From contig NZ_LT963434.1 of NCBI RefSeq assembly GCF_900199515.1, positions 1,802,180 through 1,834,179 of the forward strand: a stretch of DNA of 32,000 bases. Direction: 5' to 3'. This DNA comes from Massilicoli timonensis. Its GTDB lineage: Bacteria; Bacillota_I; Bacilli_A; Erysipelotrichales; Erysipelotrichaceae. How positions within the stretch are numbered: the stretch's first letter is position 1; every line of letters starts with the position of its first letter. The notes under the pieces were generated by a model. It was given only the letters and a program-made list of their open reading frames with translations, searched no databases and was not told the DNA's origin. Made by a program: the position numbers and the translations under genes. This document shows positions 5,428 through 32,000 of the stretch, one piece after another.

Positions 5428-5428
5428 T

Positions 5429-6914: not shown

Positions 6915-6981
6915 ACGTTATAAAAAGACATAGGTAAAAAATGAGGGTAGCCTATGACACATGGCAGGCAGGAGGAGAAAT

Positions 6982-11665: not shown

Positions 11666-12538
11666 TTATTTTATTTCATTCACTAGTCTGATCGCTTTCG
11701 GTAATACCGTTATCTCGATTCTATCATCCGGGTAAGGCTCTCCGTCCAAATTCATTCCCTGTTTTGACAGAACTTGCAGATGCTCGCATTGAAAGATCGA
11801 ACACTCCTTTAATCGCTGTGGCTTATTGCCAAGCAAGGCAGGACACTTATATAAGATACGCCATCTGGGAAAAGATCGAATCAAGCAAACATCCATTTTT
11901 CCATCATCTAATTTGGCGTCAGGAGTAAAGCAGAAACCGCCGCCGTAAAACTTCGCGTTGTTGCAGGCAAGAAATAAGGCTTTTCCTTGATATACATGCC
12001 TGCCATCGGCAATCAGTTCCACTTCATTGCATGGATAGACAAACACTCTGCGCAAGACCGTTGTCAGGTATGCCAGTTTTCGAGGAATCAGCGACCAGTT
12101 TTCATCATGTACGTGCTTGGCGATATCACTGTCCAGCGCAAAACAAGCGGCGTTGATGCAATAATGATCATTTACTTTCAGCACGTCGATCGCCTTTGCC
12201 TCTTTTGCGAGCGAGTGGCGAAAATGTGCGAGGATATCTTTTCGATCCTTCAACATTCTGGAAAAGTCATTGCCGGTACCACAGGGAATCAGCACTAATT
12301 CATGGGAAGAACCCTGCAATGCGTTGATGACCTCATGCAAAGTGCCGTCGCCTCCGCATATATAAAAGCGGCATGGATCATGGTAAGAAGCGATAATGGC
12401 GTCTGCCTCCGCACTGCCCTTGGTAAGATGAATCGCATAAGGAAGCGCACGTGCACGAAAGGTCGTTTCCATCTCTTTCAATAATTCTTTTAGATTTTTC
12501 TGCTTTGCCATCCGATTGATGATGACCACATGTTTCAT
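11666..12538 (-). CDS. Diacylglycerol-kinase-family lipid kinase (YegS/BmrU/DagK type)
   Basis: 290 aa. GGDGTLHEV and GTGNDF motifs of the DAGK catalytic domain. Confidence 0.8.
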   Translation of the reverse strand: MKHVVIINRMAKQKNLKELLKEMETTFRARALPYAIHLTKGSAEADAIIASYHDPCRFYICGGDGTLHEVINALQGSSHELVLIPCGTGNDFSRMLKDRKDILAHFRHSLAKEAKAIDVLKVNDHYCINAACFALDSDIAKHVHDENWSLIPRKLAYLTTVLRRVFVYPCNEVELIADGRHVYQGKALFLACNNAKFYGGGFCFTPDAKLDDGKMDVCLIRSFPRWRILYKCPALLGNKPQRLKECSIFQCEHLQVLSKQGMNLDGEPYPDDRIEITVLPKAIRLVNEIK

Positions 12539-12671
12539 GTAAATTCCCTTCCTTTGTTATCCTTACTCATTTTACATGATTCAAAACCGATGTGCAATGA
12601 AATGTACGGATTATCTGCTGTTTTATAGGACATCAGATACGCGAACATACGCTATGGCAAAGGAATAAGAG

Positions 12672-12682
12672 AATTGGTTTTT
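12672..12682 (-). promoter_or_regulatory. Copy of the AAAAACCAATT box oriented toward the minus-strand lipid kinase gene
   Basis: The plus strand reads AATTGGTTTTT. It is embedded in the near-palindrome AAGAGAA-TTGGTTT-TTCTCTT (12667-12687). Confidence 0.35.
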
Positions 12683-12721
12683 CTCTTGTCAAAAGTAAAG
12701 TATTTGTTCGTTTTTATAGTT

Positions 12722-12775
12722 AAAAAACCAATTTATGAAAAAGTGTTTACAAGAAACCACTTGATATGCTTAAAT
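12722..12775 (+). promoter_or_regulatory. AAAAAACCAATTTAT box plus an extended -10-like element upstream of the permease/ATPase/secreted-protein operon
   Basis: The 15-mer at 12722-12736 is identical to 17386-17400. TGcTTAAAT at 12767-12775 lies 30 nt downstream. No good -35, as expected for an activator-dependent promoter. Confidence 0.45.
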
Positions 12776-12826
12776 TAGAACAACATTACTATCATATCTT
12801 CATATAAAAAGTGTAGGTGATCGACC

Positions 12827-14890: not shown

Positions 14891-14894
14891 AGCG

Positions 14895-15530
14895 ATGGCA
14901 AAAATAATAGAAGTGAAAAAACTGTGCAAAGCGTTTGGCGATCAGCAGGTATTCGAAGATTTTTATGCGGAAGTAGAAGAAAATGAATTTGTGGCGATTG
15001 CGGGGAAATCCGGAAGCGGGAAATCGACATTGTTGAATATGATCGGTTTGTTGGATAAACCAAGCAGCGGAGATATCATCTTATTTGGGGAAAAGAATAT
15101 CAAACCGTTTTCCATGCGCGCCGAAAAAATGTTGAAGCATCACATCGGTTATTTGTTTCAAAACTTTGCCTTAGTGGAAAATGAGAGCGTCTATTACAAC
15201 ATGATGCTGGCGATAGAAAATCAGAAGATCAAAGATAAGAAAACGAAGATTGCGGAAGCGTTAAAGGCAGTCGGTTTAGAAGGGTATGAAAATAAAAAGG
15301 TCTATAAATGTTCGGGAGGGGAACAGCAGCGGATCTCGATTGCACGGCTTTTGATCAAGCCTTGTGATCTGGTCTTGGCAGATGAACCGACGGGAAGCTT
15401 GGATCACGAAAATAAAAAAATCGTGTTTGACTTATTAAAGAACTTACAGAAGTTAGGGAAAACGATCGTGGTCGTTACACATGATGAAGAGATGATTGCG
15501 GTGGCAGATCGGACGATCATGATTTCATAG
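14895..15530 (+). CDS. ABC transporter ATP-binding protein (MacB/LolD/FtsE-like)
   Basis: Walker A GKSGSGKST, signature CSGGEQQR, Walker B LVLADEPTGSLD and H-loop VVTHD. Starts 4 nt after the permease stop. Confidence 0.9.
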   Translation: MAKIIEVKKLCKAFGDQQVFEDFYAEVEENEFVAIAGKSGSGKSTLLNMIGLLDKPSSGDIILFGEKNIKPFSMRAEKMLKHHIGYLFQNFALVENESVYYNMMLAIENQKIKDKKTKIAEALKAVGLEGYENKKVYKCSGGEQQRISIARLLIKPCDLVLADEPTGSLDHENKKIVFDLLKNLQKLGKTIVVVTHDEEMIAVADRTIMIS

Positions 15531-15595
15531 CGGGGATATGATCATATTGTTTCTGTAATATGATGATATAAATTTGGTGAAAGGAGGAAAAGAAA

Positions 15596-15928
15596 ATGAA
15601 GAAAATCACCAAAACAGTTTTATGCAGTATGGCTTTGATAGCCGCATCGGGAGCAACTGTGTTTGCGGATATGAAGAAGATTCCGGATCCGGGCAGCGTG
15701 ACCTTAAAGTATGGAAGAGCCCAGACAATGGATACGCCAAATGGATTTGGAACACAGGGAAAATGTGATGATGTGAAAGATGCGCGTGTAGCCGTGTATG
15801 TGAAAGATACATACAATAATGTAATGGCAGCCGCCACGGTAAAACCGAATGCGACCGGTAGTTGTACGTGGAATGCACCGACCGGCACCCCACATGAACA
15901 TCACGCAGGCTCGGATTTATATAAGTAA
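15596..15928 (+). CDS. Small secreted protein (110-aa precursor, about 85-aa mature, two Cys); candidate Sec-dependent bacteriocin-like product
   Basis: AAAGGAGG RBS. Signal peptide MKKITKTVLCSMALIAASGATVFA|D. Last gene of the permease/ATPase operon. No family recognisable by eye. Confidence 0.6.
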   Translation: MKKITKTVLCSMALIAASGATVFADMKKIPDPGSVTLKYGRAQTMDTPNGFGTQGKCDDVKDARVAVYVKDTYNNVMAAATVKPNATGSCTWNAPTGTPHEHHAGSDLYK

Positions 15929-15956
15929 TAAGCAGCACGCATCGTGATAGGAAATA

Positions 15957-15989
15957 GGAGAAGCGAAGGAAATACGCTTGTCCTTTTCT
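15957..15989 (+). terminator. Probable rho-independent terminator after the secreted-protein gene
   Basis: GGAGAAGCG / CGCTTGTCC stem (1 mismatch), 9-nt loop, TTTTCT. Confidence 0.45.
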
Positions 15990-16092
15990 GCTTATCATGC
16001 GTATTCAATGTGATAGAAATAATTTCAAAAGTAGTGGGAAGATAAAAGAATCTATGGTAAGATAAATACGGTTATTTTAAGAGGGCGGTATT

Positions 16093-17325
16093 ATGGGAAA
16101 TAAAATGAAGACGATGTCACAGCAGGTAAAGGAAGAAATCTATTTGTTGTTGGAAACGTATCGTAAGATCAGCGGAAAAAGCGTAAAAGAATTTACAGCA
16201 AATAATGGGAAGATCGGCTGTTCTGTTACGAGCTATCGCAGAATGGGGCATCAAGGGGTTTCTGATTATCAATATTTAGATTTATTGGACTTTCATCAAA
16301 AAACATATTGCCAAACGATTCCGTTAAACGAACAAGAGCAGCATACTGTCAGGGAGTTACATCAGGCAGTTGTTTTTTATCGTTATGATACCTGCATCGC
16401 TTTGATTGATGAATTGACTGCACAATTAAAATCCAGTCAGGATATACGGGTGTATTTACTGTGGCTGTTTTTGGAAGAGCTAAGAGAATATTTTGAAAGT
16501 ATCAACTATTTAGACGAAGAGCAGATCAGGGCATATCTTAGCATTGCGCATTTATATCCGACAGAAATAAAGGATTTGATAGAGTTTTATTGTGTTTATT
16601 CAGCACAGAAGGTATCACGCTTATTGATGCATGAGATTTATCAAAATACTGAAATAGGATATAGTAAATTTCCGCCAGTTGTTGTGCATGCAATGGCGTA
16701 CGATTTTAATTATGAAGAATTTGAACGCGGGATTATAAAAAGTGCCGGTCTGAAAAAACAGGCAATGGAGACTGACAATCATGTACTGCTGTTTGAATAT
16801 TATGACAGCATGATCACTTACTATATTCAATGTGAACCGGATAAGGTTAAAGATGCATTGATCAGTATGGAAGAACTAATAAATAAGTCTTCTTTTCCAA
16901 ATGCGAAAAAAATCCAATTTTATAACAACGCAGCACATAATTATGTGTTTTTGAATTGTTTTGATCAAGCTCTGTATTATTTTGAACGCTATCTTCATGA
17001 GGCAAGTAAATTAAAATTGTGTTTAGATGGAAATATTTATACCAATATAGTTTTTTGTAAACATATGTGTGATATGCCATATGATATAGATTTAGAAGTA
17101 TTAACAACAAACAAATTTTATAGTTTGGCAGACTATTACTTATATGAATATTTTATGGAACAGTCTTTGCTTGAAACAAGAGATAAGAAAATTCGTTTTA
17201 TCAGAAATAAAATAATCAAGCACTTTAGTAAAGATGATAACTTCACTAAATATATGGTTCGATTAGAATTGATGAGAATAATCGATCAAAGTAAAAATTT
17301 AGATTTGATCCTACAAACGATGTAA
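16093..17325 (+). CDS. Cytoplasmic HTH (XRE-like) plus long helical-repeat (TPR-like) regulator; candidate RRNPP-type peptide receptor (paralog 1)
   Basis: 410 aa with no TM or signal peptide. N-terminal YRKISGKSVKEFT...CSVTSYRRM resembles an XRE HTH. The remainder is rich in Y/L/E/F helical repeats. Collinear similarity to the 29852-31066 product. Followed by a propeptide gene. Confidence 0.65.
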   Translation: MGNKMKTMSQQVKEEIYLLLETYRKISGKSVKEFTANNGKIGCSVTSYRRMGHQGVSDYQYLDLLDFHQKTYCQTIPLNEQEQHTVRELHQAVVFYRYDTCIALIDELTAQLKSSQDIRVYLLWLFLEELREYFESINYLDEEQIRAYLSIAHLYPTEIKDLIEFYCVYSAQKVSRLLMHEIYQNTEIGYSKFPPVVVHAMAYDFNYEEFERGIIKSAGLKKQAMETDNHVLLFEYYDSMITYYIQCEPDKVKDALISMEELINKSSFPNAKKIQFYNNAAHNYVFLNCFDQALYYFERYLHEASKLKLCLDGNIYTNIVFCKHMCDMPYDIDLEVLTTNKFYSLADYYLYEYFMEQSLLETRDKKIRFIRNKIIKHFSKDDNFTKYMVRLELMRIIDQSKNLDLILQTM

Positions 17326-17385
17326 TCATTAGAAAATGTGGTTTTTGCGGAATAAAACATGAGGAAAATTCAATAAAATAAAGGC

Positions 17386-17437
17386 AAAAAACCAATTTAT
17401 AAGAATCTCTTTCTTTTTGTGAGAGATTTGGTAAAAT
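17386..17437 (+). promoter_or_regulatory. AAAAAACCAATTTAT box plus an extended -10 (TGgTAAAAT) upstream of propeptide gene 1
   Basis: The 15-mer at 17386-17400 is identical to 12722-12736. TGGTAAAAT at 17429-17437 lies 28 nt downstream. An inverted partial copy, AGAGATTTGGT, sits at 17422-17432. Confidence 0.5.
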
Positions 17438-17465
17438 CATATCGTTAATAGGGAGGTTGTGTTTA

Positions 17466-17576
17466 ATGAGAAAAATGTTATTAGGTACTTTGATGTTCGT
17501 AATGCTGGCAGCTCTTGCTACACCGGTTTCGGCAGATGAGCCGATGCCTATGGGTACTTGGAACGAAAAAGTATAA
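17466..17576 (+). CDS. Unannotated 36-aa secreted propeptide (candidate quorum-sensing pheromone precursor 1): MRKMLLGTLMFVMLAALATPVSADEPMPMGTWNEKV
   Basis: GGGAGG RBS 9 nt upstream. Canonical Sec signal peptide with a VSA|DE cleavage site. 13-aa exported tail. Terminator immediately after the stop. Located 140 nt downstream of the regulator. Confidence 0.7.
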   Translation: MRKMLLGTLMFVMLAALATPVSADEPMPMGTWNEKV

Positions 17577-17603
17577 GATCATAGAACGCTATGGTCTTTT
17601 TTT
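17577..17603 (+). terminator. Rho-independent terminator after propeptide gene 1
   Basis: GATCATAG / CTATGGTC stem (one G-U pair), AACG loop, T7. Confidence 0.75.
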
Positions 17604-17671
17604 ATTGCCTGCGCTATACATTTTCAGACTTTTGAGATAAAATAATGAAGTTATCAGAAAGGACTGATGGT

Positions 17672-19042
17672 ATGAATAAAAGCCGTATGGAAACAGAGCC
17701 GATCGGGAAATTATTGTTTTCCCTCGCAGTGCCGACGGTATTGGCGCAGTTAGTCAATCTGCTTTATAATATCGTGGATAGAATTTTTGTCGGAAGAATG
17801 GCAGGAGTCGGTGATCTGGCATTGGCAGGTCTGGGCGTCAGTTTCCCGATCATCATGTTGATCAGCGCATTTGCGGCGTTGATCGGGATGGGCGGTGCCC
17901 CAAGAGCCTCTATTCATATGGGAGAGAAGCGCAATGATAAAGCGGAGAAGGTACTGGGGAACTGCGTGAGTGCACTTACGATCTGTGCGATCATACTTAC
18001 GATCGTCTTTTTATGGATCAAAGATCCGATCTTGCTGCTGTTTGGCGCCAGTGAAAAAACGCTGCCTTATGCAAGTGATTATCTGGGCATCTATTTGATC
18101 GGTACGATTTTTGTGCAGTTTGCATTAGGATTAAACATGTTCATCACTTCGCAAGGTTTTGCGAAAACCGGAATGGCGACCGTTTGCATCGGAGCGATCA
18201 TCAATATCATTCTGGATCCGATCTTTATCTTTGTGTTTGATATGGGAGTGCGTGGAGCGGCATTGGCAACGATCTTATCACAGGCGGTATCGGCGCTTTG
18301 GGTTTTGTACTTCCTTGTGGGGAAACGTACGATCTTAAAGATTCGTAAAGAGAATCTGAAATTAGAGCGAACGGTCATGATGCCGGTGCTGGCTTTAGGG
18401 ATTTCGCCTTTTGTCATGCAGGCGACGGAATGTCTGGTGCAATTAACCTTTAATAAAAGCATTGCTTATTATGGAAGCGATCTATATGTTACGATGATGT
18501 CGATCTTATTTTCGGTCATGCAGTTTATTTGGCTGCCGATGCAGGGATTTTCTCAGGGAGCACAGCCGATCCTAAGCTATAATTTCGGCTCGGGCAACTA
18601 TGAACGGGTACGCAAAACTTTTCGCTTGCTGTTTCAGGCGCTGATTGTTTATTCATTGCTTTTGGTCGGCAGTGTCGAGCTGTTTCCGCAGTTCTATATC
18701 GAGTTATTTGCACCTGACAATGCGGCGTTAATGGAGATTGCGGTGCCCGGCATTCGAATCTTTATGTTCGGCATGATGTTTATGGGCGCGCAAAGTGCTT
18801 GCCAGCAAACTTTTCTTGCACTGGGGGAAGCAAAGGTTTCTATGTTTCTGGCGTTTTTGCGCAAGCTGATCTTGCTTTTGCCGCTGATCTTGCTTTTGCC
18901 GCTGTTTGTCAAACCGGGAACGACCGGGGTATTGTTGGCGGAAGCGGTTGCCGATATTTTGGCGGTCAGCGTAACGGTGATCATATTTTCAAAGCGTTTT
19001 CCGCAGATCTTGGCAAAAAAGAGGCAAGAAACAAGTATGTAA
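17672..19042 (+). CDS. MATE-family efflux transporter
   Basis: 12-TM-type protein with the typical N-terminus PIGKLLFSLAVPTVLAQLVNLLYNIVDRIFVG. AAAGGA RBS favours ATG 17672 over 17645. Confidence 0.85.
   Translation: MNKSRMETEPIGKLLFSLAVPTVLAQLVNLLYNIVDRIFVGRMAGVGDLALAGLGVSFPIIMLISAFAALIGMGGAPRASIHMGEKRNDKAEKVLGNCVSALTICAIILTIVFLWIKDPILLLFGASEKTLPYASDYLGIYLIGTIFVQFALGLNMFITSQGFAKTGMATVCIGAIINIILDPIFIFVFDMGVRGAALATILSQAVSALWVLYFLVGKRTILKIRKENLKLERTVMMPVLALGISPFVMQATECLVQLTFNKSIAYYGSDLYVTMMSILFSVMQFIWLPMQGFSQGAQPILSYNFGSGNYERVRKTFRLLFQALIVYSLLLVGSVELFPQFYIELFAPDNAALMEIAVPGIRIFMFGMMFMGAQSACQQTFLALGEAKVSMFLAFLRKLILLLPLILLLPLFVKPGTTGVLLAEAVADILAVSVTVIIFSKRFPQILAKKRQETSM
18866..18901 (+). repeat. 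Perfect 18-bp tandem duplication inside the MATE gene
   Basis: CTGATCTTGCTTTTGCCG occurs twice back to back and in frame, giving LILLLP-LILLLP in the last TM region. Confidence 0.95.
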
Positions 19043-21122: not shown

Positions 21123-21965
21123 ATGTTTAGAAGTGTCCGTTATGTATTAAGTGAGAACTTTAGAAATCTGAATCGGATCTTTTCCATCTCTAAATACGAA
21201 CTGCTGGCGGATATGCGCGATACCAGACTGGGACTGTTCTGGAACTTCGCCAATCCGGTGATTCAGGTCTTGACCTATTGGCTGGTATTCGGCGGTATTT
21301 TGCGAGGCGATCGCGGTTCTATTTTAGGCATTGCCTATATCGACTGGATGATCGTCGGCATTTTTGTGTGGTTTTTTGTATCGAAGTGCATTACCGGCGG
21401 ATGCAATGCCATTCATGCCAAGGTGAATGTCATCACAAAGATGAAATTTCCGGTAGCGATCTTGCCGGTTACGGTCGTATTGAAGGAGTTTTTTAATCAT
21501 TTGTGCATGCTGCCGATCGTATTGGCGGTCTATGTCTTTCATGCCGGCTTTTCTTTAGGCGACATCGACTGGCTGATGCTTGGCTATTATTTGTTCTGCA
21601 CCTTGTTTTTATGTATTTCGATCTCCATGGTAACTTCGGTATTGACGATGTTTACCCGCGATGTAAAAAAACTGGTAAATTCCTGCATGCGTCTGCTTTT
21701 ATATTTGACGCCGGTGCTCTGGGAGCCGGCAGAGGCGCTGGTGAAAAGCGCTTTGGCAGACCAGGCTTATACCGTTATCAATATTTTGAAGATCAATCCG
21801 CTTTATTATCTGGTAAAGGGATATCGCGACTGTTTTTACTACCATTATGGCTTCAGTACGGTCCCAAACCAGACGATCGTATTTTGGACGGTTACTTTGA
21901 CTTTGTTTGTAATCGGCAGTTTCTTGATGTATAAGTTCAAACATAAATTCATTGATATGTTCTAA
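21123..21965 (+). CDS. tagG: Teichoic acid / polysaccharide ABC-2-type export permease
   Basis: 280-aa, 6-TM ABC-2 permease directly upstream of a TagH-like ATPase and tagD. Confidence 0.8.
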   Translation: MFRSVRYVLSENFRNLNRIFSISKYELLADMRDTRLGLFWNFANPVIQVLTYWLVFGGILRGDRGSILGIAYIDWMIVGIFVWFFVSKCITGGCNAIHAKVNVITKMKFPVAILPVTVVLKEFFNHLCMLPIVLAVYVFHAGFSLGDIDWLMLGYYLFCTLFLCISISMVTSVLTMFTRDVKKLVNSCMRLLLYLTPVLWEPAEALVKSALADQAYTVINILKINPLYYLVKGYRDCFYYHYGFSTVPNQTIVFWTVTLTLFVIGSFLMYKFKHKFIDMF

Positions 21966-21975
21966 GGAGTAAAGC

Positions 21976-22803
21976 ATGGAAAAAGAATGTGCGGTCGTAT
22001 TTGACCATGTGTCAAAAATTTACAAACTGAAGAAAAAAGGAAAAAACGCAGGGAAACCGGTCTATTTTTATGCGCTCAAAGACATCAGTTTTCAAATACC
22101 CAAAGGGGAGGTTGTCGGAGTGCTGGGGACAAACGGATCGGGGAAAAGCACGCTTTCCTCTATCTTAGCGGGGATTTCCAGCATCGACAGCGGAACGATA
22201 AAGATCAGCGGCGAACAGGCGCTCATCGCAATCAATTCCGGTTTGAACAACCAACTGACCGGATTAGAAAACATCAAGCTGAAAGGAGCGCTGCTTGGTT
22301 TATCGAAAAAACGGATTAAAGAGATCATTGACGGAGTGATCGATTTTGCGGAATTAGGTGATTTCATCGATCAGCCGGTAAAAAAATATTCCAGCGGGAT
22401 GAAGAGCCGTTTAGGATTTGCGATCTCGATCAACTTAAATCCTGATATCATCATTATCGACGAGGCGCTTTCCGTTGGCGACAAGGGCTTTGCGGAGAAG
22501 TGCATGAAGCGTATGAATGCGTTTAAGGAAGAAGGAAAGACGATCTTTTTCATTTCTCATTCGCTCAGTCAAGTCCGAAGGTTTTGCAATATGGGGCTTT
22601 GGATCGAAGGCGGGCAGATGATGGAATATGATGAAATCAATGCGGTGTGCGATCATTATGACGCTTATGTGGAAGCAGACAGACAGCGCAGCGAGGAAGA
22701 AAAAAAGGCATTCCGTAAAAAGAAGTTTCAAAAGCGTGTTGTTAAAAACGTAAAAGTCAGCTTGATTGAACGGGTGCTGCTGAAAGTGAAAGGAGGGAAA
22801 TAA
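21976..22803 (+). CDS. tagH: Teichoic acid export ATP-binding protein
   Basis: Walker A GTNGSGKST, signature YSSGMKSRL, Walker B IIIIDEALSVGD. Genomic context. Confidence 0.85.
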   Translation: MEKECAVVFDHVSKIYKLKKKGKNAGKPVYFYALKDISFQIPKGEVVGVLGTNGSGKSTLSSILAGISSIDSGTIKISGEQALIAINSGLNNQLTGLENIKLKGALLGLSKKRIKEIIDGVIDFAELGDFIDQPVKKYSSGMKSRLGFAISINLNPDIIIIDEALSVGDKGFAEKCMKRMNAFKEEGKTIFFISHSLSQVRRFCNMGLWIEGGQMMEYDEINAVCDHYDAYVEADRQRSEEEKKAFRKKKFQKRVVKNVKVSLIERVLLKVKGGK

Positions 22804-23195
22804 TGAGAAAGGTCATAACATATGGAACTTTTGATTTATTTCATGTCGGACATTTGAATATTTTGAAAAGAGCGAAGGCACAGGGCGATTATCTGGTCGT
22901 TGCGGTATCCTCTGATGCTTTCAATGCCGGGAAGGGCAAGAAAGCCTATTATTCGCAGGAAGATCGCATGGAGATCTTAAAGGCGATCAAATATGTGGAT
23001 GAAGTGATCTTAGAAGAATCATGGGATCAGAAGATCCGTGATGTAAAAGAACATGATATTGATGTCTTTGTCATGGGCGATGACTGGAAAGGGAAGTTTG
23101 ACTTTTTGAAGGATTATTGCGAAGTGGTGTACTTGCCGCGTACGGAGGGCATTTCCTCTACCAAGATCAAACAGGATCTCAGCATCAAGTCCTGA
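22803..23195 (+). CDS. tagD: Glycerol-3-phosphate cytidylyltransferase
   Basis: 130 aa. The TYGTFDLFHVGHLNILKRAK (HxGH) and RTEGISST motifs are characteristic of TagD/TarD. Confidence 0.9.
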   Translation: MRKVITYGTFDLFHVGHLNILKRAKAQGDYLVVAVSSDAFNAGKGKKAYYSQEDRMEILKAIKYVDEVILEESWDQKIRDVKEHDIDVFVMGDDWKGKFDFLKDYCEVVYLPRTEGISSTKIKQDLSIKS

Positions 23196-23207
23196 TCGGA
23201 GCTTGAC

Positions 23208-25820
23208 ATGGAAACGGGAAATAGGATGAACCGCGATCTTGGCTTAGTGAAGATCGAAGGCAGCCGCAATGCCTATTATTATCTGGCGGCAGAAACAGCA
23301 GCGCTGCGGCTCAATGTGGAAAACGGCTTCTTTTCGGTGCGTACTTTATTACAGGAAAATGCGCATCTGATGGGAGCGCATACGACCTTTCGTCTTATGG
23401 AAATCGAGATGCAGGGGGAGCGTGCGGCTGTAATCGAGAATACCCAGGAAGCACGTACCTTGCTTTGGAACGGTGCGCTTTATCGTTATGCGTTAAGGCA
23501 GGATGAGCAAGGTGCGCTTTTTGACATAGAAAAGCTGCCGTTTGGCAAAGGAATTTCATGTACGGGACTTGGCATCGAGGATGGTAAGATCAAACTGTAT
23601 TTAGATCAGGCAGTGGAAGGACTTTGTCTGATCGCCGTGCATCAGGAAGAAAGCATCGAATTGGCGATGCTGCAGGATCACGCATTTACCATTGAGCCAT
23701 CGGCTTTCACAAAGCTGCATGGGTTGCAATATGAATTATTTTTTAAGAAAGCGGAGCGGTTATTCCCGATACAGGTGGAAGAGACACTGCACTGCATGAT
23801 TCCTTTCCTGCAAGAGCAGGCGGCAAGTCTTGTAAAGATCGATATGGGAAAACAGGCAACGCTTACTTTTACAGGCATTGAGGAGGCGCTGCATCCGGAA
23901 ATCTATGCGCTGATCGCTCACGATGAACAAATCGAGGTAAGCGGAAAGTGGAATGCGCCGCTTTCTTTGATACAGAACTGTGAAAAAACAATGCTTTTTT
24001 GCGCCGGCGATGACAGTGCGATAGAAAGCGTGGATATGGACGGTGATGAAAGCGAGTTTACCTTGCATATTACCGAAAAACAGCTGGAAGAAATGCAGAA
24101 GCGTTTTTCCAAACGCTGGGATCTGTATTTGGAATTAAGACGAGGCGATGATGTGATCGCCATGCTGCCGATCGTCAAAGGGAAAACCTTAAATGCCGCT
24201 ATCCTGTATGAAGCGACATGGGGCAGCGAAACGCTTTGTTCTTTGCAGCTAAGCGCCACTAAGCAAAAAGGCAATGTCTATGTGCAGTTCCTTGCGCCGG
24301 TTCATATCAGCAAGATCAATTATATGGAGCATTTATTTGGGCATTTGCGTATCCATATGCGGATGCAGCAGGATGTAAGCGCCATTTATCGCGGTTTGTC
24401 ATATCAGGTGAAAATAGGCGATGCTTGGCAAAGCGCCAGACTGCAAAAACGCGGTGCAAGAACACTGCTGCTGAAGGTTCCCTGCAAAGACTTAGAAGCG
24501 ATGATCGCACAGCTTCGGCAATCCGGATTGGAAATGATGCTCGGCTATCGGGAGCAGCGCTATTGCTATACGATCAAAGAGCTGGATTACAGCCGTATCT
24601 ATGCGACTTTTTCTCAGCATGTCTTTCAATCACGCCGTTACCGTACCTTAGGCAAGCGTTTGTACCGTCTGTTTTTGAAATTGCCGGTGCGTAAAAACAA
24701 GATCTTGTTTGAAAGCTTTTTAGGGCGAAATGTATCCGGCAATCCGAAATATCTCTATGAATATTTATGCAACCATGAGATCGGCAAGTCTTATCGCATG
24801 TACTGGATCTTAAATGATCCCGATGAAACGATCAGCGCGCCCGGTAAAAAGATCCTGCGCCGTTCGATTCGCTACTATTATCATATGGCGACAGCCGGTT
24901 TTTGGATTTTCAATACACGTCAGGACAGTGATATCATCAAGCGCAAAAAGACGATTTACTTACAGACATGGCATGGCACGCCGCTAAAACGTCTTGGTTT
25001 TGATATGGACGATGTGAACATGGCATCACAGAGCAATATCGTAGAATACAAGCGGCAGTTTTATGCCAATTCCCGCCGCTGGGATTATCTGCTTGCGCAG
25101 AATCAGTATTCCGCCGATATATTCAGACGCTGCTTCGTATTCCGTAAATCGTTATTGGCATTGGGCTATCCTGCTAATGACGTGCTGTTTACGAAAAACA
25201 ATGAACAGGATATTCGCTCATTAAAGGAAAAGATGGGGATCCCGCTCGATAAAAAAGTCATTTTATATGCGCCGACATGGCGAGATGATCATTTTGTGCG
25301 CAAAGGCTACTATCAGATGAAGATGGAATTGGATCTGAAATTGATGCAGGAGCGTTTAGGTGAAGAATATGTGGTGCTGTTAAGAATGCACTATCTGATC
25401 ATGAATGTTTTGGATATTCACGCTTACCAGGGCTTCGCCTATGATTTCAGTGCGGGGTCTGATATTCAGGAACTGTATTTGGTATCCGATCTGTTGATTA
25501 CCGACTATTCATCGGTCATGTTCGACTATGCCAATCTGCGCCGTCCGATCGTGTTTTATACTTATGATATCGACGCTTATCGCGATTCCCTGCGCGGCTT
25601 CTATTTCGATTTTGAAAAAGAGGCGTGCGGTCCGATCTGCCGTACGACTTCGGAAGTGGTGGAAGCCATTGAGAAACAGGCGATCTGGCGTGAGGAATAC
25701 GCGGAAAAGATCGCTTCCTTCCATCAGAAATTCAACCATATCGATGATGGCAACGCTTCTAAACGCATATTAGAAATCGTACTCGATCGAAGCAGACAGG
25801 AGCAGCACGATGATCATTAA
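23208..25820 (+). CDS. CDP-glycerol glycerophosphotransferase (TagF-like polymerase) with an N-terminal region of about 500 aa of unknown function
   Basis: The C-terminal ~370 aa (NPKYLYEYL...TWHGTPLKRLG...YAPTWRD...ITDYSSVMFDY) match the Glyphos_transf family. The N-terminal half has no motif I recognise. Confidence 0.8.
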   Translation: METGNRMNRDLGLVKIEGSRNAYYYLAAETAALRLNVENGFFSVRTLLQENAHLMGAHTTFRLMEIEMQGERAAVIENTQEARTLLWNGALYRYALRQDEQGALFDIEKLPFGKGISCTGLGIEDGKIKLYLDQAVEGLCLIAVHQEESIELAMLQDHAFTIEPSAFTKLHGLQYELFFKKAERLFPIQVEETLHCMIPFLQEQAASLVKIDMGKQATLTFTGIEEALHPEIYALIAHDEQIEVSGKWNAPLSLIQNCEKTMLFCAGDDSAIESVDMDGDESEFTLHITEKQLEEMQKRFSKRWDLYLELRRGDDVIAMLPIVKGKTLNAAILYEATWGSETLCSLQLSATKQKGNVYVQFLAPVHISKINYMEHLFGHLRIHMRMQQDVSAIYRGLSYQVKIGDAWQSARLQKRGARTLLLKVPCKDLEAMIAQLRQSGLEMMLGYREQRYCYTIKELDYSRIYATFSQHVFQSRRYRTLGKRLYRLFLKLPVRKNKILFESFLGRNVSGNPKYLYEYLCNHEIGKSYRMYWILNDPDETISAPGKKILRRSIRYYYHMATAGFWIFNTRQDSDIIKRKKTIYLQTWHGTPLKRLGFDMDDVNMASQSNIVEYKRQFYANSRRWDYLLAQNQYSADIFRRCFVFRKSLLALGYPANDVLFTKNNEQDIRSLKEKMGIPLDKKVILYAPTWRDDHFVRKGYYQMKMELDLKLMQERLGEEYVVLLRMHYLIMNVLDIHAYQGFAYDFSAGSDIQELYLVSDLLITDYSSVMFDYANLRRPIVFYTYDIDAYRDSLRGFYFDFEKEACGPICRTTSEVVEAIEKQAIWREEYAEKIASFHQKFNHIDDGNASKRILEIVLDRSRQEQHDDH

Positions 25821-26997
25821 GGCAAAAAAAGCGATCCGCGCAATACTGGCGTTTTTGTATCGTCATACGTATCGTCATGTAAAAGTAAAAGAAAGAACGG
25901 TATTTTTCCTGTCTTTTCATGGACGGGGATACAGCGACAATCCTAAAGCCATCTACGAATATATGCGCAGCTGCGGTGAGTATGCGAACTATCGCTTTAT
26001 CTGGGCGCTGCGTGATCCTAAGCGCAAGATCGAGGGCGCTAAGGTCATTCGCTACAACGGTCCGTTTTACTTCTATTATCTGATGCGTTCACAATACTGG
26101 ATCGTAAACTGCAAACTGGCAGATTATTTCCTGAAGAAAGACGAGCAGATTTATTTACAGACGTGGCATGGCACACCGTTAAAAAAATTGGCGCATGACA
26201 TTGATGTGAGCGATGATACGACTTTTTATCGCACCAAGATGAGCAAAGCGCAGATGCAGACTACCTATGACAGGGATGTGGCAAAATACAATTATATGAT
26301 CAGCCCCAATCCTTTCTGCACCGAGGTGTTTCAAAGCGCTTTTCGCATCGACCGGGCACGCTTGATCGAAACCGGCTATCCGCGTAATGATTTTCTTTCT
26401 CATTTCAGCGAGCAGGATGTTTTACAAATGAAGCGGAAGCTGCATCTTCCGACCGATAAAAAAGTCATTTTATACGCGCCGACATGGCGGGACAACAGTT
26501 ATCGTCTATCCGGCTATACCTTTCAGCTGGAAGTTGATTTTCTAAAATGGAAGCAGGTGTTAGGCGATTCGTATATCGTATTGTTCAAGCCGCATTATCT
26601 GATCGTCAATACCTTTGATATGAGTCAGGTAAAAGACTTTGTTTACGAGATCGACGCCAAGGCAGACATCGCCCCGCTTTATCCGCTTGCGGATCTGCTG
26701 ATCACCGATTATTCCAGTGTCTTTTTCGATTACGCGATCCTAAAGCGGCCGATCTATTTCTATATGTATGACATCGAAAGCTATGCAAATGAGCTGCGCG
26801 GCTTTTATTTCGATTTGTATGAGACATTGCCGGGGCGCATCTATACGGAGGAAGACTTGTTGCTGGCGGATATTGCCGGCGGTGTATATGAAGAAAACCG
26901 TATTTCCGCATTTCATAAGCGTTTCCATGTGCATGAAGACGGATGGGCAAGCAAGCGTGTTTGTGATATAGTATTTAAGAAAGAACAGACGAGATGA
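25810..26997 (+). CDS. CDP-glycerol glycerophosphotransferase-family protein (TagF/TagB paralog)
   Basis: NPKAIYEYM, TWHGTPLKKL, YAPTWRD and ITDYSSVFFDY are collinear with the catalytic half of the upstream gene. 11-nt overlap. Confidence 0.85.
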   Translation: MIIKAKKAIRAILAFLYRHTYRHVKVKERTVFFLSFHGRGYSDNPKAIYEYMRSCGEYANYRFIWALRDPKRKIEGAKVIRYNGPFYFYYLMRSQYWIVNCKLADYFLKKDEQIYLQTWHGTPLKKLAHDIDVSDDTTFYRTKMSKAQMQTTYDRDVAKYNYMISPNPFCTEVFQSAFRIDRARLIETGYPRNDFLSHFSEQDVLQMKRKLHLPTDKKVILYAPTWRDNSYRLSGYTFQLEVDFLKWKQVLGDSYIVLFKPHYLIVNTFDMSQVKDFVYEIDAKADIAPLYPLADLLITDYSSVFFDYAILKRPIYFYMYDIESYANELRGFYFDLYETLPGRIYTEEDLLLADIAGGVYEENRISAFHKRFHVHEDGWASKRVCDIVFKKEQTR

Positions 26998-27006
26998 GGT
27001 GAAAGC

Positions 27007-28119
27007 ATGTCTCTTGCCAGATTGGTATTAAATATGATCATGGGTCCGATGTATGTCATTACCCTGCTGTTTCCCATTAAGCCGAATAAGATCGCTTTTA
27101 TTTCTTTGAGCAGCGAGAAGCTGGAAGGAGATTTCAAGATCATCGCCCGCAAGCTGGAAGAACATCCGGAATATGAAGTCGTATCGGTATTGGCGAAGTT
27201 CAAGCGCAATCTGCCCGGCTGTTTTGCCTATTTCTTTGCGCTGTTAAAACAGTTGTACCATATCAATACTTCTCATTTGGTATTATTGGATTCCAATAAC
27301 TATGCGGTTTCTTATTTCAAGAAAAAGCAGGTAAAGGTATTGCAGGTGTGGCATGCGAGCGGAGCGATCAAAAAGTTCGGCAATGATGTCAAACGCAGTT
27401 ATCCGATCAAAAACTATGACTATGTACTGGCATGCGCCGATATTTGGAAGCCGTATTATGCCAGCGCCTTCGGGGTAAAGGAAGAACAGGTGATTCCGAT
27501 CGGGATTCCGCGAACGGACCGCATCTTTTCAAAAAAGCGGATGAAGAAATATCAGAAAGAGATCGAAGCATTGTATCCGCAGATCTTAGGTCATAAGGTC
27601 GTCTTATATGCACCTACTTTCCGCGGCAATGTCATGCAGGACTATCATTATGAAAAGATCGACTTAAAGGCGATGAAACAAACGCTTGGCGAAGCGTACT
27701 GCATTATTTATAAACTGCATCCGTTGTTAAGAGAAGCATCGCTCGATGAGATGAATGATCCGATGATCATCAATGCCAATGATATCAGCATCAAGCGCTT
27801 ATTTGCGGTCAGCGATTATTTGATCAGTGATTATTCCAGTGTGATCTTTGAATATTCGGTACTGGGGAAACCGGTCTTGTTTTATACACCGGATCTTGCG
27901 CAGTATCAGGAAGAGGTCGGCATGTATCTGGACTATGAAGCAATCATGCCAGGACCGATCTGCTATGATGAAAAGGAGCTGAGCGCTTATATCTTAGCTG
28001 ATCAGTTTGACTTAAAGCGCATCAAGCAGTTCAGAAATCAGTTTTTCCGTTATCGGGATGGGAAATCGACAAAGCGGGTCATGGAATTCATTGATGAGAT
28101 CATGCAGACACCGTTATAA
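27007..28119 (+). CDS. CDP-glycerol glycerophosphotransferase-family protein (TagB-like, more divergent)
   Basis: VWHASGAIKKFG, YAPTFRG and ISDYSSVIFEY are variants of the same family motifs. 370 aa. Confidence 0.8.
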   Translation: MSLARLVLNMIMGPMYVITLLFPIKPNKIAFISLSSEKLEGDFKIIARKLEEHPEYEVVSVLAKFKRNLPGCFAYFFALLKQLYHINTSHLVLLDSNNYAVSYFKKKQVKVLQVWHASGAIKKFGNDVKRSYPIKNYDYVLACADIWKPYYASAFGVKEEQVIPIGIPRTDRIFSKKRMKKYQKEIEALYPQILGHKVVLYAPTFRGNVMQDYHYEKIDLKAMKQTLGEAYCIIYKLHPLLREASLDEMNDPMIINANDISIKRLFAVSDYLISDYSSVIFEYSVLGKPVLFYTPDLAQYQEEVGMYLDYEAIMPGPICYDEKELSAYILADQFDLKRIKQFRNQFFRYRDGKSTKRVMEFIDEIMQTPL

Positions 28120-28898: not shown

Positions 28899-29762
28899 AT
28901 GAAAATTGCATGGATCGGCACCGGTGTCATGGGCAGTGCGATGGCTTGTCATTTACAAAAAGCAGGTCATGAAGTCAAAGCGTATAATCGAACCGGTAAA
29001 AAAGCAGAAGCATTACAGGCAGTGGGCATACGGGCGATGAAAACGATCGCGGACTGTGTGGCAGATTGTGAGGTCGTCTTTACGATGGTGGGAGAACCGC
29101 ATGATGTGGAAGCGGTGTATTATGGTGAGCAGGGAATTTTGGCACACGCGCCAAAGGGCGCGTATTTGATCGATATGACAACTTCCGCGCCGTCTTTGGC
29201 ACGCAGGATCGCACATGACGCACATGATTTCCATGTGTTGGACGCACCGGTATCAGGCGGCGACATCGGCGCACAAAAAGGAACGCTTACGGTAATGTGC
29301 GGCGGGGATCATGCTGATTTTGAAAAGATGGAGCCGCTTTTTTCCTGTTTTGCGGAAACGATCACTTACCAGGGGGAAGCCGGCAGCGGGCAGCACTGCA
29401 AAGCATGTAATCAGATCGCCTTGGCGGGGTGCATTGCCTCAGCAGCAGAAGCACTCACTTATGCGCGAACATCAGGTTTGGATCCCAAGCAGGTATTGGC
29501 AGCGATCGCAAAGGGAGCGGCTGGAAGCTTCCAACTGACCCACAACGGGGAGAAGATGTTGTGTCATGATTATGAACCGGGATTCTATATCAAGCATTTT
29601 ATCAAGGATATGAACATCGCGGCAGCAGAACTGAAGCAGATGGATTTGCATTTCCCGATCTTAACGCAGGTGCAAAGCATTTATGAAACGCTGCGGGAAA
29701 TGGGATATGATGACGCGGGCACACAGGCGATATGGGAATATTATCAGTCAAAGCAGAATTGA
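28899..29762 (+). CDS. NAD(P)-dependent beta-hydroxyacid dehydrogenase (3-hydroxyisobutyrate / tartronate-semialdehyde reductase family)
   Basis: N-terminal MKIAWIGTGVMGSAMACHL Rossmann motif. DAPVSGG and the catalytic-Lys region GSGQHCKACNQ. GAGGTGA RBS favours ATG 28899. Confidence 0.85.
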   Translation: MKIAWIGTGVMGSAMACHLQKAGHEVKAYNRTGKKAEALQAVGIRAMKTIADCVADCEVVFTMVGEPHDVEAVYYGEQGILAHAPKGAYLIDMTTSAPSLARRIAHDAHDFHVLDAPVSGGDIGAQKGTLTVMCGGDHADFEKMEPLFSCFAETITYQGEAGSGQHCKACNQIALAGCIASAAEALTYARTSGLDPKQVLAAIAKGAAGSFQLTHNGEKMLCHDYEPGFYIKHFIKDMNIAAAELKQMDLHFPILTQVQSIYETLREMGYDDAGTQAIWEYYQSKQN

Positions 29763-29774
29763 TCTGCTTTTTTT
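29751..29774 (+). terminator. Rho-independent terminator after the dehydrogenase gene
   Basis: AAGCAGA / TCTGCTT stem with the stop codon in the loop, followed by T5. Confidence 0.7.
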
Positions 29775-29790: not shown

Positions 29791-29819
29791 TTGTTTTTCT
29801 ACTTACATCCTGTTATAAT
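29791..29819 (+). promoter_or_regulatory. Promoter candidate for regulator paralog 2
   Basis: TTGTTT (-35), 17-nt spacer including TGt, and a consensus TATAAT at 29814-29819. Confidence 0.55.
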
Positions 29820-29851
29820 AGAAACAGAAAACATCTGGGAGGAGGCACGAT

Positions 29852-31066
29852 GTGCTGTCATTACAGAAAAAAAGAAATCTTTATCATGAATTAGAAATGT
29901 ATCGCCTCTGGCATTGCTGGTCGCAAAATCGTTTTGTTTCAGACATGATATCTTATGCGACGTATGCCAAAATGAAGGAAGCGAATAATCGCATACAGGA
30001 CCAGAGCTACGTTGATTTACTGTCATATTATGGGTTTGACATTGAACATGATCTGGTCTATCACGAAATAAAAGAACAAATCGTATCGCTGCATGATGCT
30101 TTGAGCAGATGTGAATTAGAAAGCAGCAGTGCATTGCTTGAACAATTAGAACATCATTTATCTATACAAAATACCTGTATAGAGAGCATCAATCTGCGAT
30201 TGTTTTTGCATAGACTGTTACAGTATGTAAAGAATGATGTTTATTTGAGTGAAAGCCAAATTGAAGCATTGTTATCTTATTATCAGAATAAGCCAAAACC
30301 ATTGAAGGACCTCATTTTATATTATATGATCTATTCTGCTACTAAGATCAGCTTTACCTATCAGCAATATTTATATGAGAAGATAGAAGCATTACGCGTA
30401 TCGGATTATTTGCCGATCATGGTTCATTATATGGGATATTTGATCAACTGCAAACAATTTCAAAAAGCGTTGTTATTAGGAAACGAAATCTATCAAAAAG
30501 CGCATGAAACAAAAAATCACTATATGCTGTTTGAGTATTATGAGAATATGCTTGCTTATTATATTCGATATGAACCAAATCAAGTAGAGAAAACCCAGAA
30601 ACAGATAGAAGCAATCATGAAGCAAATCCATTTTCCGAGAATCAAAAAGATGCAATACTATCGTAATTATGCCAAACGGTGTATTTCAAAGCATGAATAT
30701 CAAAAGGCTTTAGCCGCATTTCAAGAGATACAAGAATACAGTTTACAAGGGAATGTTCATGATCGTGTGAGCATTATATATAATATCACTTTTTGCGAAA
30801 GCCAACTTCAAATTCCTTATAGCATCGCTTATGATTATGCATTGAAAAAAGAACATTTTGAAAGCAAGGCTGATTATTATTTGTTTCAATATTTACTAAA
30901 GAAGAACGATATGACAAATGCACAACGGGTTCGTTATTTGCATAAGATTGCGAAAGTCATGAAAGATCATGAGGATTATACGAAATTTCAAATAAGGGAA
31001 GAATTATATATGATTAGTATGAAAGATAAAAAGGCAGATCTTTTCCGCTATCTGGAGAATAGATAA
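29852..31066 (+). CDS. HTH (XRE-like) plus helical-repeat regulator; candidate RRNPP-type peptide receptor (paralog 2)
   Basis: GTG start 6 nt after GGGAGGAGG. N-terminal YRLWHCWSQNRFVSDMISYATYAKMKEANNRI resembles an XRE HTH. Blocks shared with paralog 1 include HYMLFEYYENMLAYYIRYEPNQV vs HVLLFEYYDSMITYYIQCEPDKV and LKDLILYYMIYSATKIS vs IKDLIEFYCVYSAQKVS. Confidence 0.65.
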   Translation: MLSLQKKRNLYHELEMYRLWHCWSQNRFVSDMISYATYAKMKEANNRIQDQSYVDLLSYYGFDIEHDLVYHEIKEQIVSLHDALSRCELESSSALLEQLEHHLSIQNTCIESINLRLFLHRLLQYVKNDVYLSESQIEALLSYYQNKPKPLKDLILYYMIYSATKISFTYQQYLYEKIEALRVSDYLPIMVHYMGYLINCKQFQKALLLGNEIYQKAHETKNHYMLFEYYENMLAYYIRYEPNQVEKTQKQIEAIMKQIHFPRIKKMQYYRNYAKRCISKHEYQKALAAFQEIQEYSLQGNVHDRVSIIYNITFCESQLQIPYSIAYDYALKKEHFESKADYYLFQYLLKKNDMTNAQRVRYLHKIAKVMKDHEDYTKFQIREELYMISMKDKKADLFRYLENR

Positions 31067-31194
31067 ATCACATAAAAAGTAAACAATTATGCAACTTTTT
31101 TCAGCGTTATCTAACCTATTTGTAAACAGTGGCATTTTGTTATGGCGTGTGATAATCTAAAGATAGGAAAGGAGTTTATAATAAAATTGTTGTA

Positions 31195-31317
31195 ATGATG
31201 AAAAGAACTAAGATATTATTAAAATTAGCATTGCTTTTCTGCTTGATCGTTTTGACGGCAAATGCAGTAGAAAGCATGCAACCGCGTTCAAGAGAAACGT
31301 GGATAGAAAAAAATTAA
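31195..31317 (+). CDS. Unannotated 40-aa secreted propeptide (candidate pheromone precursor 2): MMKRTKILLKLALLFCLIVLTANAVESMQPRSRETWIEKN
   Basis: Sec signal peptide with an ANA|VES cleavage site. 16-aa tail whose end, ETWIEKN, parallels GTWNEKV of peptide 1. Lies 128 nt after the regulator. The RBS is poor (GGAAAGGAG is 20 nt upstream), which lowers confidence. Confidence 0.55.
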   Translation: MMKRTKILLKLALLFCLIVLTANAVESMQPRSRETWIEKN

Positions 31318-31342
31318 ATCATTTAATGAGAGAGGAGCAAAA

Positions 31343-31963
31343 ATGAAAAAAAAGATATTTATAACGGTATTGTTATGTTTGTTTTCAATTTCACCGATTT
31401 CTTTGCGAGCCAATGAACTTGAAAGAAACACGGTGGAATCAGATCATGAAATTGTAATAGAAAACGTTGATGAATTAAGTGATGCGGAAATTGATAGAAT
31501 CATGAAAAAAGAAACCGAAAAGTATTTAGAGCGTGTTGTTCCGGGTTATGCGGATGAAAAGAAAGTAAGAGCCAGACCGACCTATGAAACGGTCTACGGA
31601 ACAGCCAAAACGGTAACGATTGGCGGATATGCCGGAAATCAGCCGGCAGGAGGCAGAAGATTTAACACAGGAGGAGGCTTTTGGTTCTCTGATAGCGGTG
31701 GACCTACTGCTTCATTAAATGTATCTTTTCCTGCACCTTATGATTTGATCAGTGTTTCCGTTACGCTGGGATCAGTTGGAAGTAGCGGCGTATTTGTACT
31801 AGCTCCTGATACGACCCATTATTTTAAGCTTTATGTTTCCAAAAAAGTTCGTGTACAGCCATATGTCGTATATTATACAAACAGCCAAGGGAAGAAAACC
31901 GTATGGCTTAGAAGTAAAACTACGACAGTAACGAAGGTGGATCAATATGCAAAGCAAGTATAA
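31343..31963 (+). CDS. Secreted protein of unknown function (206-aa precursor), Gly/Ser/Thr-rich beta-type C-terminal domain
   Basis: GAGAGGAG RBS. Signal peptide MKKKIFITVLLCLFSISPISLRA|NE. Begins 25 nt after propeptide gene 2 with no intervening terminator. Confidence 0.65.
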   Translation: MKKKIFITVLLCLFSISPISLRANELERNTVESDHEIVIENVDELSDAEIDRIMKKETEKYLERVVPGYADEKKVRARPTYETVYGTAKTVTIGGYAGNQPAGGRRFNTGGGFWFSDSGGPTASLNVSFPAPYDLISVSVTLGSVGSSGVFVLAPDTTHYFKLYVSKKVRVQPYVVYYTNSQGKKTVWLRSKTTTVTKVDQYAKQV

Positions 31964-32000
31964 ATTATTTGGCAGCATCATTTCTGTTATTTTGATCATT
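31947..32000 (+). CDS. 5' end of a further gene, truncated by the window edge; the N-terminus looks like a TM/signal-anchor segment
   Basis: GAAGGTGG RBS 6 nt before ATG 31947. Encodes MQSKYKLFGSIISVILII... and overlaps the end of the upstream gene by 17 nt. Confidence 0.35.
   Translation, partial: MQSKYKLFGSIISVILII

Follow-up and report, generated by a model that had tools for sequence, protein, structure and literature searches.

A likely RRNPP-type peptide quorum-sensing cassette of Massilicoli timonensis and its paralog in the same genome

The stretch analysed here comprises 32,000 nucleotides (nt) of the Massilicoli timonensis contig NZ_LT963434.1 (the window). It carries two cassettes in which the gene of a large protein is followed on the same strand by a small open reading frame (ORF). 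The downstream cassette encodes R2, with 404 amino acids (aa), and the small ORF pep2; the upstream cassette encodes R1 with 410 aa and pep1 (Table 1). We consider it likely that R2 and pep2 form a peptide quorum-sensing cassette of the RRNPP type (Rap, Rgg, NprR, PlcR, PrgX), organised like PlcR-PapR or NprR-NprX, that its receptor is a member of a subfamily that is found only in Erysipelotrichaceae and had not been annotated before, and that the pair is an old paralog of R1 and pep1; this grading is meant for the reading as a whole. A receptor and a propeptide had been proposed at this place in a sequence-only reading of the window. That interpretation is supported and essentially right.

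The sequence-only reading described the product of 29852-31066 as collinear with R1, based on six blocks matched by eye. Re-reading of the sequence returns the same forward-strand coordinates and the same 404-aa product. All six blocks fall into aligned columns of a BLASTP alignment that extends over the full length of both proteins with 31% identity, 53% positives and an E-value of 4e-50. By this alignment, R1 and R2 are true full-length paralogs. The R2 ORF begins with GTG, 6 nt downstream of a GGAGG at 29841-29845. Both cassettes are AT-rich, with a GC content of 0.33-0.36 (window positions 16001-18000 and 30001-32000) compared to 0.44-0.48 in flanking core genes, which suggests that they are acquired or fast-evolving islands. 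A teichoic-acid gene cluster (21123-28119) stands between them. The label of pherotypes, which had been offered for the two pairs, does not hold. R1 and R2 occupy two loci of one genome and, with 31% identity, are paralogs and not alleles, and their conspecific copies are 98-100% identical (98-100% for R1 variants, 99.86% for the R2 cassette over five contigs).

The relationship of R2 to known receptors becomes visible through its family. R1 and R2 have no match in Pfam or NCBIfam and, with phmmer, none among PDB sequences. A word-indexed search of 5.8e9 proteins with R2 as query returned only R2 itself, and a profile of the close subfamily (alignment A3) gave 0 matches against all PDB chains. 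When 1.84e9 cluster representatives were scanned in full with HMMER, a profile built from R1 and R2 recovered only 22 relatives. Five of them are close (P0002-P0006, ~30% identity), and 17 are distant, full-length proteins of ~390-440 aa with E-values from 5e-11 to 1e-3. R1 and R2 themselves are missing from the matches in the 50%-identity representative library. The distant relatives show sub-threshold Pfam matches to the helix-turn-helix (HTH) family HTH_3 and to single tetratricopeptide repeats (TPRs; TPR_1/2/8 below gathering score), and no Pfam TPR match is found for R1, R2 or P0002. With the 19-sequence family profile, the search of PDB yields PlcR at an E-value of 1.3e-7, Rgg2/Rgg3 at 3e-3, HipB-type HTH domains and consensus TPR proteins, the last of these at profile positions 267-300. 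PlcR and Rgg are reached by the wide family profile through its N-terminal part only. A profile of the N-terminal 68 residues has the PlcR HTH as its best match (E 1.7e-6), followed by HipB, PezA, Rgg and SinR.

The AlphaFold2 model of R2, computed from the family alignment, has a predicted local distance difference test score (pLDDT) of 89.4 and a predicted template-modelling score (pTM) of 0.83. It is all-alpha, with four N-terminal helices and ~17 paired helices. In this model, R2 is an XRE-type HTH fused to a TPR-like superhelix, and the latter is presumed to be the peptide-binding domain. Those RRNPPA receptors that act as transcription factors are built from the same combination (PMC9765709). 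Foldseek ranks the complex of PlcR, PapR7 and DNA (3u3w) first among PDB structures, and the best global TM-scores are reached with NprR (5dbk, 0.54/0.60), Rap (4gyo, 0.50/0.55) and phi3T Rap (8rsv, 0.50/0.55). Modelled separately, residues 1-68 have a pLDDT of 90.4. Among the top 50 PDB matches of this model, ranks 1 to 48 are taken by XRE-family HTH domains, including the DNA-binding domain of ComR and Rgg2 bound to DNA, and the best of them reach TM-scores of 0.6-0.77. Against a viral fold library, the R2 model finds generic TPR, Sel1 and SNAP proteins only and no AimR-like match. Asn222 and Asn272 are each kept in 16 of the 19 family members. The earlier view of R2 as a receptor is thus borne out by its fold, which is that of cytoplasmic peptide receptors and closest to PlcR, NprR and Rap.

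The small ORF behind R2 exists as it had been described, 128 nt after the receptor gene and with a Sec-type leader, a cleavage site between ANA and V and a 16-aa tail. Its leader reads MMKRTK, ILLKLALLFCLIVL and TANA before V25, which corresponds to a positive n-region, a 14-residue hydrophobic core and A-N-A at the cleavage site. A crude heuristic of our own, which considers n-region, h-region and AxA motif, was applied to every ORF of 25-90 aa on either strand of the window, 297 in total; pep2 ranks first and pep1 second. The two peptides end in ETWIEKN (pep2) and GTWNEKV (pep1). In the six-frame translation of the window, the pattern TW.EK has two matches, both located one residue from the C-terminus of pep1 and pep2. 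The expected count is 0.05, and two or more matches occurred in 1 of 300 shuffles. From the ranks in signal-peptide score and the excess of TW.EK matches we conclude that the pattern shared by pep1 and pep2 is not a chance effect. By analogy to PapR, Phr and AimP, the mature signal of pep2 is presumed to be its C-terminal 6-7-mer. The start of pep1 (ATG 17466) follows a GGGAGG by 7 nt, and a terminator is located at 17575-17598. A lipoprotein reading of pep2 was rejected, as Phe precedes Cys (LLFC), which is not lipobox-like. The window holds no Rfam family, and around the pep2 start no RNA structure is significant (z = 0.56), which led us to reject a riboswitch, a leader RNA and a hairpin that would span the distance between Shine-Dalgarno sequence and ATG.

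That the small ORF is part of a unit with the receptor is supported by its recurrence. We regarded 14 family loci as informative, meaning that enough sequence is available downstream of the receptor; L011, L023 and L028 are truncated and were left out. A same-strand Sec-type small ORF follows the receptor in nine of the 14, R1 and R2 counted. The other seven are L007 (P0003), L012 (P0007), L013 (P0010), L014 (P0008), L016 (P0013), L025 and L027, where the signal-peptide ORF lies 111-362 nt after the receptor and has the best or second-best small-ORF score of its locus. At L015 (P0011), a less certain candidate is divergently placed. Six family peptides, pep1 included, have a Shine-Dalgarno sequence 6-9 nt from the start. 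The peptide tails are alike within receptor clades and unrelated between clades, which is what a C-terminal cognate ligand and pair-specific signalling predict. In the P0010 clade, the propeptides end in GSGIHVRV, GGGIHVIV and STKVRV (L013 4404-4523, L025 3320-3448, L027 2254-2379; consensus IHV[RI]V/KVRV), and the small ORFs that accompany P0007 and P0011 end in NGGEDFWE and SGGYFDD. The latter two ORFs (L012 4310-4483; L015 2641-2808, minus strand) encode Cys-rich peptides of 55-57 aa and head operons for a ~108-aa protein, a DUF1430 protein and an ATP-binding cassette (ABC) protein; the start codon of the ORF in L015 is uncertain.

The published signature of RRNPP systems consists of a small propeptide, Sec export, a receptor of 250-500 aa, TPRs and direct adjacency (PMC10075063). 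With 40 aa for pep2 and 36 aa for pep1, counted from ATG 17466, both propeptides are within the range of 10-100 aa, and both have Sec-type leaders by our heuristic. The 404 aa of R2 fall within the receptor range. The distances of 128 nt from R2 to pep2 and 140 nt from R1 to pep1, on the same strand, are within the reference interval of -50 to 191 bp (PMC10075063). A TPR-like superhelical fold is indicated by the AlphaFold2 model, by Foldseek and by the family profile. All five features of the signature are in substance present, with the exception that the TPRs are visible through structure and profile only and are not seen by hidden Markov models (HMMs) run on the sequence. The missing HMM match does not exclude RRNPP membership, because Rgg and PrgX likewise lack recognisable TPR sequences (PMC9765709). 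R2 also has the N-terminal HTH of the branch that holds PlcR, NprR, Rgg, PrgX and AimR. Since no direct sequence homology to a named RRNPPA subfamily (Rap, Rgg/ComR, NprR, PlcR, PrgX, AimR) is detected, with 0 PDB matches, we file the family as a new subfamily and not under PlcR or NprR.

Several observations weigh against a working R2/pep2 signalling pair. R2 alone and the close-subfamily profile alone match nothing in Pfam, NCBIfam or PDB, so that R2 is connected to RRNPP transitively and by structure. The Foldseek E-values of R2 are weak (~5e-3), with generic TPR proteins interleaved among the matches. Family loci L006, L024, L026 and L029 have no downstream peptide ORF. Of these, the absence after P0002 in L006 deserves little weight, because that contig is likely chimeric: L006 and L011 (ENA ERZ27236797) are short contigs whose translations contain the Nextera-adapter-derived strings VSYTHL, MYKRQ and CIRDR. 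A k-mer search comparing the region upstream of pep2 with other intergenic regions of the R2 neighbourhood found no operator-like repeat for R2. Homologs of the 206-aa protein encoded behind pep2 occur elsewhere without any R-type receptor. At the start of pep2, the sole Shine-Dalgarno sequence, AGGAG at 31170-31174, is 20 nt away from ATG 31195, and no in-frame canonical start is nearer to it. The bad spacing had rightly been named as a weakness beforehand, and it makes translation of pep2 uncertain. Gene callers left pep2 uncalled in four conspecific contigs (L001-L004); they did call peptide genes at five other family loci. The near-identity of the conspecific copies leaves no within-species test of selection on pep2.

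In a rival explanation that we regard as unlikely, R2 is a real HTH/TPR regulator that works either as an orphan or in response to pep1, and 31195-31317 is a decaying or poorly translated propeptide remnant, left from a duplication, that gives no working signal. The unusual spacing compared to 6-9 nt in other family members, the absence of a gene call and the four receptors lacking a recognisable peptide gene all agree with it, and pep1 could act on both receptors through the common TW.EK core. However, the pep2 ORF is intact, has the top signal-peptide score of the window and is undisrupted in all five conspecific contigs (5/5), and it keeps the tail motif even though its DNA is otherwise unalignable with that of pep1. 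A perfect TATAAT at 31177-31182 permits a near-leaderless mRNA that could do without a Shine-Dalgarno sequence. Less probable still is that the small ORFs are secreted effectors, or first cistrons of secreted-protein or bacteriocin-like operons, e.g. Sec-dependent antimicrobial or immunity-related peptides, and that the HTH/TPR proteins answer another cue. The position of pep2 25 nt before the gene of a secreted 206-aa protein, the Cys-rich peptides at the head of operons in L012 and L015, and the correspondence of DUF1430, ABC and a ~110-aa Sec protein to the lactococcin-972/mediterrocin layout (PMC12345188) would be explained by it. But known Sec-dependent bacteriocins are longer than the cleaved tails, which are unmodified and have 13-16 aa. 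Pep1 stands as a monocistronic gene that has a terminator of its own and is not followed by effector genes, and the tails co-vary with the receptor clade. A receptor followed by a Sec propeptide is moreover the defining RRNPP arrangement (PMC10075063). The idea that the small ORF arose by chance as an open frame of AT-rich intergenic DNA, with R2 as a divergent TPR protein of unrelated function, is already disfavoured, and we hold it to be very improbable. It could draw on the lack of annotation for the small ORF, on the low GC content and on a Shine-Dalgarno sequence that is weak or mis-spaced. It is opposed by the first rank of pep2 among 297 ORFs, by the two TW.EK matches at equivalent places in both paralogous cassettes, by the arrangement at nine of 14 loci and by a well supported HTH and PlcR-like fold.

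With R2 and pep2 taken as a signalling pair, we infer processing, import, binding, operator and regulon steps by analogy to known systems. R2 would be transcribed from its own promoter. Pep2 would be exported by Sec and cleaved after ANA, and its 16-aa pro-region would be trimmed extracellularly to a short C-terminal peptide with TWIEK(N). At high cell density, this peptide would be re-imported through an oligopeptide permease; no opp genes are located inside the window. It would then bind to the repeat domain of R2 on its concave side and switch DNA binding of R2 at a promoter between R2 and pep2. The switch would drive pep2 in positive feedback and, on the same transcript, the genes of the 206-aa secreted protein and the 136-aa membrane protein. 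R1 would by analogy control pep1 and a lactococcin-972-like DUF1430/ABC/110-aa locus via a common AAAAAACCAATTTAT box.

Regulatory elements that could serve these steps can be read from the intergenic regions (Table 1). Judged by its sequence, the terminator-like hairpin at the 5' boundary insulates R2 upstream. The putative R2 promoter was not listed in the consensus scan owing to its weak -35 element. Upstream of pep2, the candidate promoters are GTGGCA-16-TGtGATAAT at 31129-31156 and the perfect TATAAT, which stands between AGGAG and the ATG. The latter would give a nearly leaderless pep2 mRNA, and such a transcript could explain the badly spaced ribosome-binding site. For R1, the exact repeat AAAAAACCAATTTAT is a candidate operator. 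It lies inside a 34-nt repeat (12715-12748 and 17379-17412) and is the best direct repeat in 12400-17700, with 0.32 matches expected at up to 2 mismatches. An inverted repeat AATCTCT-N11-AGAGATT upstream of pep1 was rejected, as it showed no recurrence beyond chance. DNA alignment of the R1-pep1 and R2-pep2 intergenic regions was uninformative.

Table 1. Features of the two cassettes and their surroundings, in window coordinates.
Feature	Position	Strand	Remarks
R2, 404-aa receptor	29852..31066	+	WP_102269221.1, 'hypothetical protein', Massilicoli timonensis (identical sequence, exact look-up)
N-terminal four-helix XRE-type HTH domain of R2, aa 1-62	29852..30037	+	Domain profile and domain model
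C-terminal all-alpha TPR-like repeat domain of R2, aa 69-403, ~17 helices	30056..31060	+	Model secondary structure, family profile
pep2, candidate 40-aa Sec-exported propeptide, MMKRTKILLKLALLFCLIVLTANAVESMQPRSRETWIEKN	31195..31317	+	128 nt after R2 stop
Predicted signal peptide of pep2, aa 1-24, MMKRTKILLKLALLFCLIVLTANA	31195..31266	+	Cleavage between ANA and VES; own n/h/c-region heuristic
Predicted exported 16-aa pro-region of pep2, VESMQPRSRETWIEKN	31267..31314	+	Conserved TWIEK core at 31297-31311
R1, 410-aa receptor of first cassette	16093..17325	+	WP_102269201.1, 'hypothetical protein', Massilicoli timonensis
pep1, 36-aa propeptide, MRKMLLGTLMFVMLAALATPVSADEPMPMGTWNEKV	17466..17576	+	140 nt after R1; TWNEK at 17556-17570
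Intrinsic-terminator-like hairpin and T-run	29750..29770	+	8-bp stem then TTTTTAT; ends upstream dehydrogenase gene; 5' boundary of cassette
Putative sigma-A promoter of R2	29791..29819	+	TTGTTT, 17 nt, TGtTATAAT (extended -10), read from sequence
R2-pep2 intergenic region, 128 nt	31067..31194	+	Presumed pep2 promoter and operator
AAAAAACCAATTTAT, 15-nt exact repeat	17386..17400 and 12722-12736	+	Upstream of pep1 and of DUF1430/ABC/110-aa operon
206-aa secreted protein	31343..31963	+	25 nt after pep2, own GAGGAG

The genes behind pep2 suggest what the pair may control. The gene of the 206-aa protein is followed by that of a 136-aa membrane protein, which lies beyond the window end and was located in a conspecific contig (L002 12096-12506), and a terminator is found only after it (L002 12507-12535). 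Pep2 therefore probably heads an operon with these two genes. Beyond the terminator are genes for a 122-aa membrane protein, a MacB-type ABC transporter and a 506-aa membrane protein. The 206-aa protein has no Pfam or PDB match. Its homologs are always paired with a membrane partner of ~128-136 aa (L017-L022), often on conjugative or mobile elements (type IV secretion system coupling protein, RepA_N, ParA). As these pairs occur on conjugative elements without R-type receptor, the module is portable. R1 adjoins genes of a 687-aa DUF1430/FtsX membrane protein, an ABC ATPase and a 110-aa protein with Sec signal (window 12827-15928). The DUF1430 match in Pfam is above cutoff, and that to TIGR01654 (E 3e-19) is below. 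This trio also flanks P0007 (L012) and P0011 (L015), and its layout is that of lactococcin-972/mediterrocin clusters (PMC12345188). Clusters of the lactococcin-972 type hold an immunity-like DUF1430 protein with seven transmembrane segments, an ABC ATPase and a Sec-dependent bacteriocin of ~90-115 aa from the Lcn972 family. The ~110-aa proteins have in common just a weak PNG..G / H.H..Y pattern, and no Lcn972 match was found for the 110-aa secreted protein or other small proteins of these loci.

All relatives with a taxonomic name belong to Erysipelotrichaceae, namely Longicatena, [Eubacterium] hominis and metagenome-assembled genomes of the family, one of which holds two paralogs. A profile search with alignment A3 found no relatives in genome contigs (GTDB species representatives) or metagenome contigs. 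A third family member, P0003, is present in another M. timonensis strain (L007, 99.4% identical to window 1471-7414), on a strain-variable island (L007 3443-10928) with a serine recombinase and a Mob_Pre relaxase next to smpB. An in-frame stop (L007 7992-7994) splits its HTH from the repeat domain. P0003 is followed by a 38-aa signal-peptide ORF, an ORF of 64-69 aa and a 321-aa lipoprotein. Where L007 has the island, the strain of the window has a BspA-type leucine-rich repeat protein (91-1446).

Beyond the single cassette, a wider picture can be drawn, toward which we are inclined less than to the first reading and which we propose only tentatively. The R family would be an Erysipelotrichaceae-specific RRNPP subfamily invisible to sequence-based detectors, since no TPR or HTH HMM matches it, with propeptides that head secreted-protein or lactococcin-972-like operons. 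M. timonensis would possess two chromosomal channels and a third, strain-variable channel on a mobilisable island. The chromosomal channels had been thought of as possibly orthogonal. As both of their peptides carry the TW.EK core, which may allow cross-talk between the two pairs, they are perhaps partly coupled, by cross-talk or hierarchy. If this picture is true, competition between bacteria would be tied to peptide signalling in a lineage of gut commensals.

RRNPP systems as a kind are known, and large surveys predicted many new RRNPP subfamilies. New is a rare, unannotated receptor subfamily, whose members R1 and R2 are carried as hypothetical proteins. To our knowledge, no quorum sensing has been described in the gut commensal lineage Erysipelotrichaceae; in the literature searched, no paper joins RRNPP with Erysipelotrich*, and the RRNPP_detector supplements contain neither the R1 and R2 accessions nor Massilicoli. 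The R family extends RRNPP-type signalling to gut Erysipelotrichaceae in a form that HMM-based tools like RRNPP_detector would miss, because its TPRs are unrecognisable by sequence. Our findings further suggest that peptide signalling may control secreted-protein and bacteriocin-like loci relevant to gut competition.

Among known systems, PlcR-PapR of the Bacillus cereus group shares with R2/pep2 an XRE-type HTH with helical repeats and a downstream same-strand Sec propeptide whose C-terminal tail is likely the active part. PlcR is also the best sequence-profile match of the R2 family and, with 3u3w, the top Foldseek match. In contrast to R2 with ~17 repeat helices in 404 aa, PlcR has 285 aa and five TPRs, no pairwise sequence similarity to R2 and a low global TM-score (0.19-0.26). 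No PlcR-box-like palindrome was found here, the host class is Erysipelotrichia, and the output genes are unrelated. NprR-NprX of Bacillus, Rap-Phr and phi3T Rap resemble the cassette in their size of ~360-420 aa, the long TPR superhelix and the downstream Sec-exported propeptides, and they give the best global structural superpositions with the R2 model. Rap, however, has no HTH and acts on proteins, unlike R2 with its clear HTH. The three-helix bundle of NprR and Rap (PMC9765709) was not identified in R2, and there is no detectable sequence similarity.

The streptococcal Rgg/SHP and ComR/XIP systems combine an XRE HTH with a TPR-like fold that lacks recognisable TPR motifs (PMC9765709). As in the R family, the regulated operon can begin with the peptide gene and several paralogs occur per genome, and the family profile matches Rgg2/Rgg3 weakly. 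Rgg proteins are shorter (~285 aa), and their peptides have no Sec leader and use PptAB, whereas the leaders here are of the Sec type. In the TprA/PhrA system of Streptococcus pneumoniae, the receptor is PlcR-like and the Sec propeptide is encoded next to it; the system presumably controls a neighbouring bacteriocin/immunity/ABC locus. It belongs to another receptor subfamily and is linked to a lantibiotic, in contrast to the lactococcin-972-like class here, and R2 itself neighbours an uncharacterised 206-aa/136-aa pair. The likeness to TprA/PhrA is given by R1, P0007 and P0011, which adjoin DUF1430/ABC/~110-aa loci.

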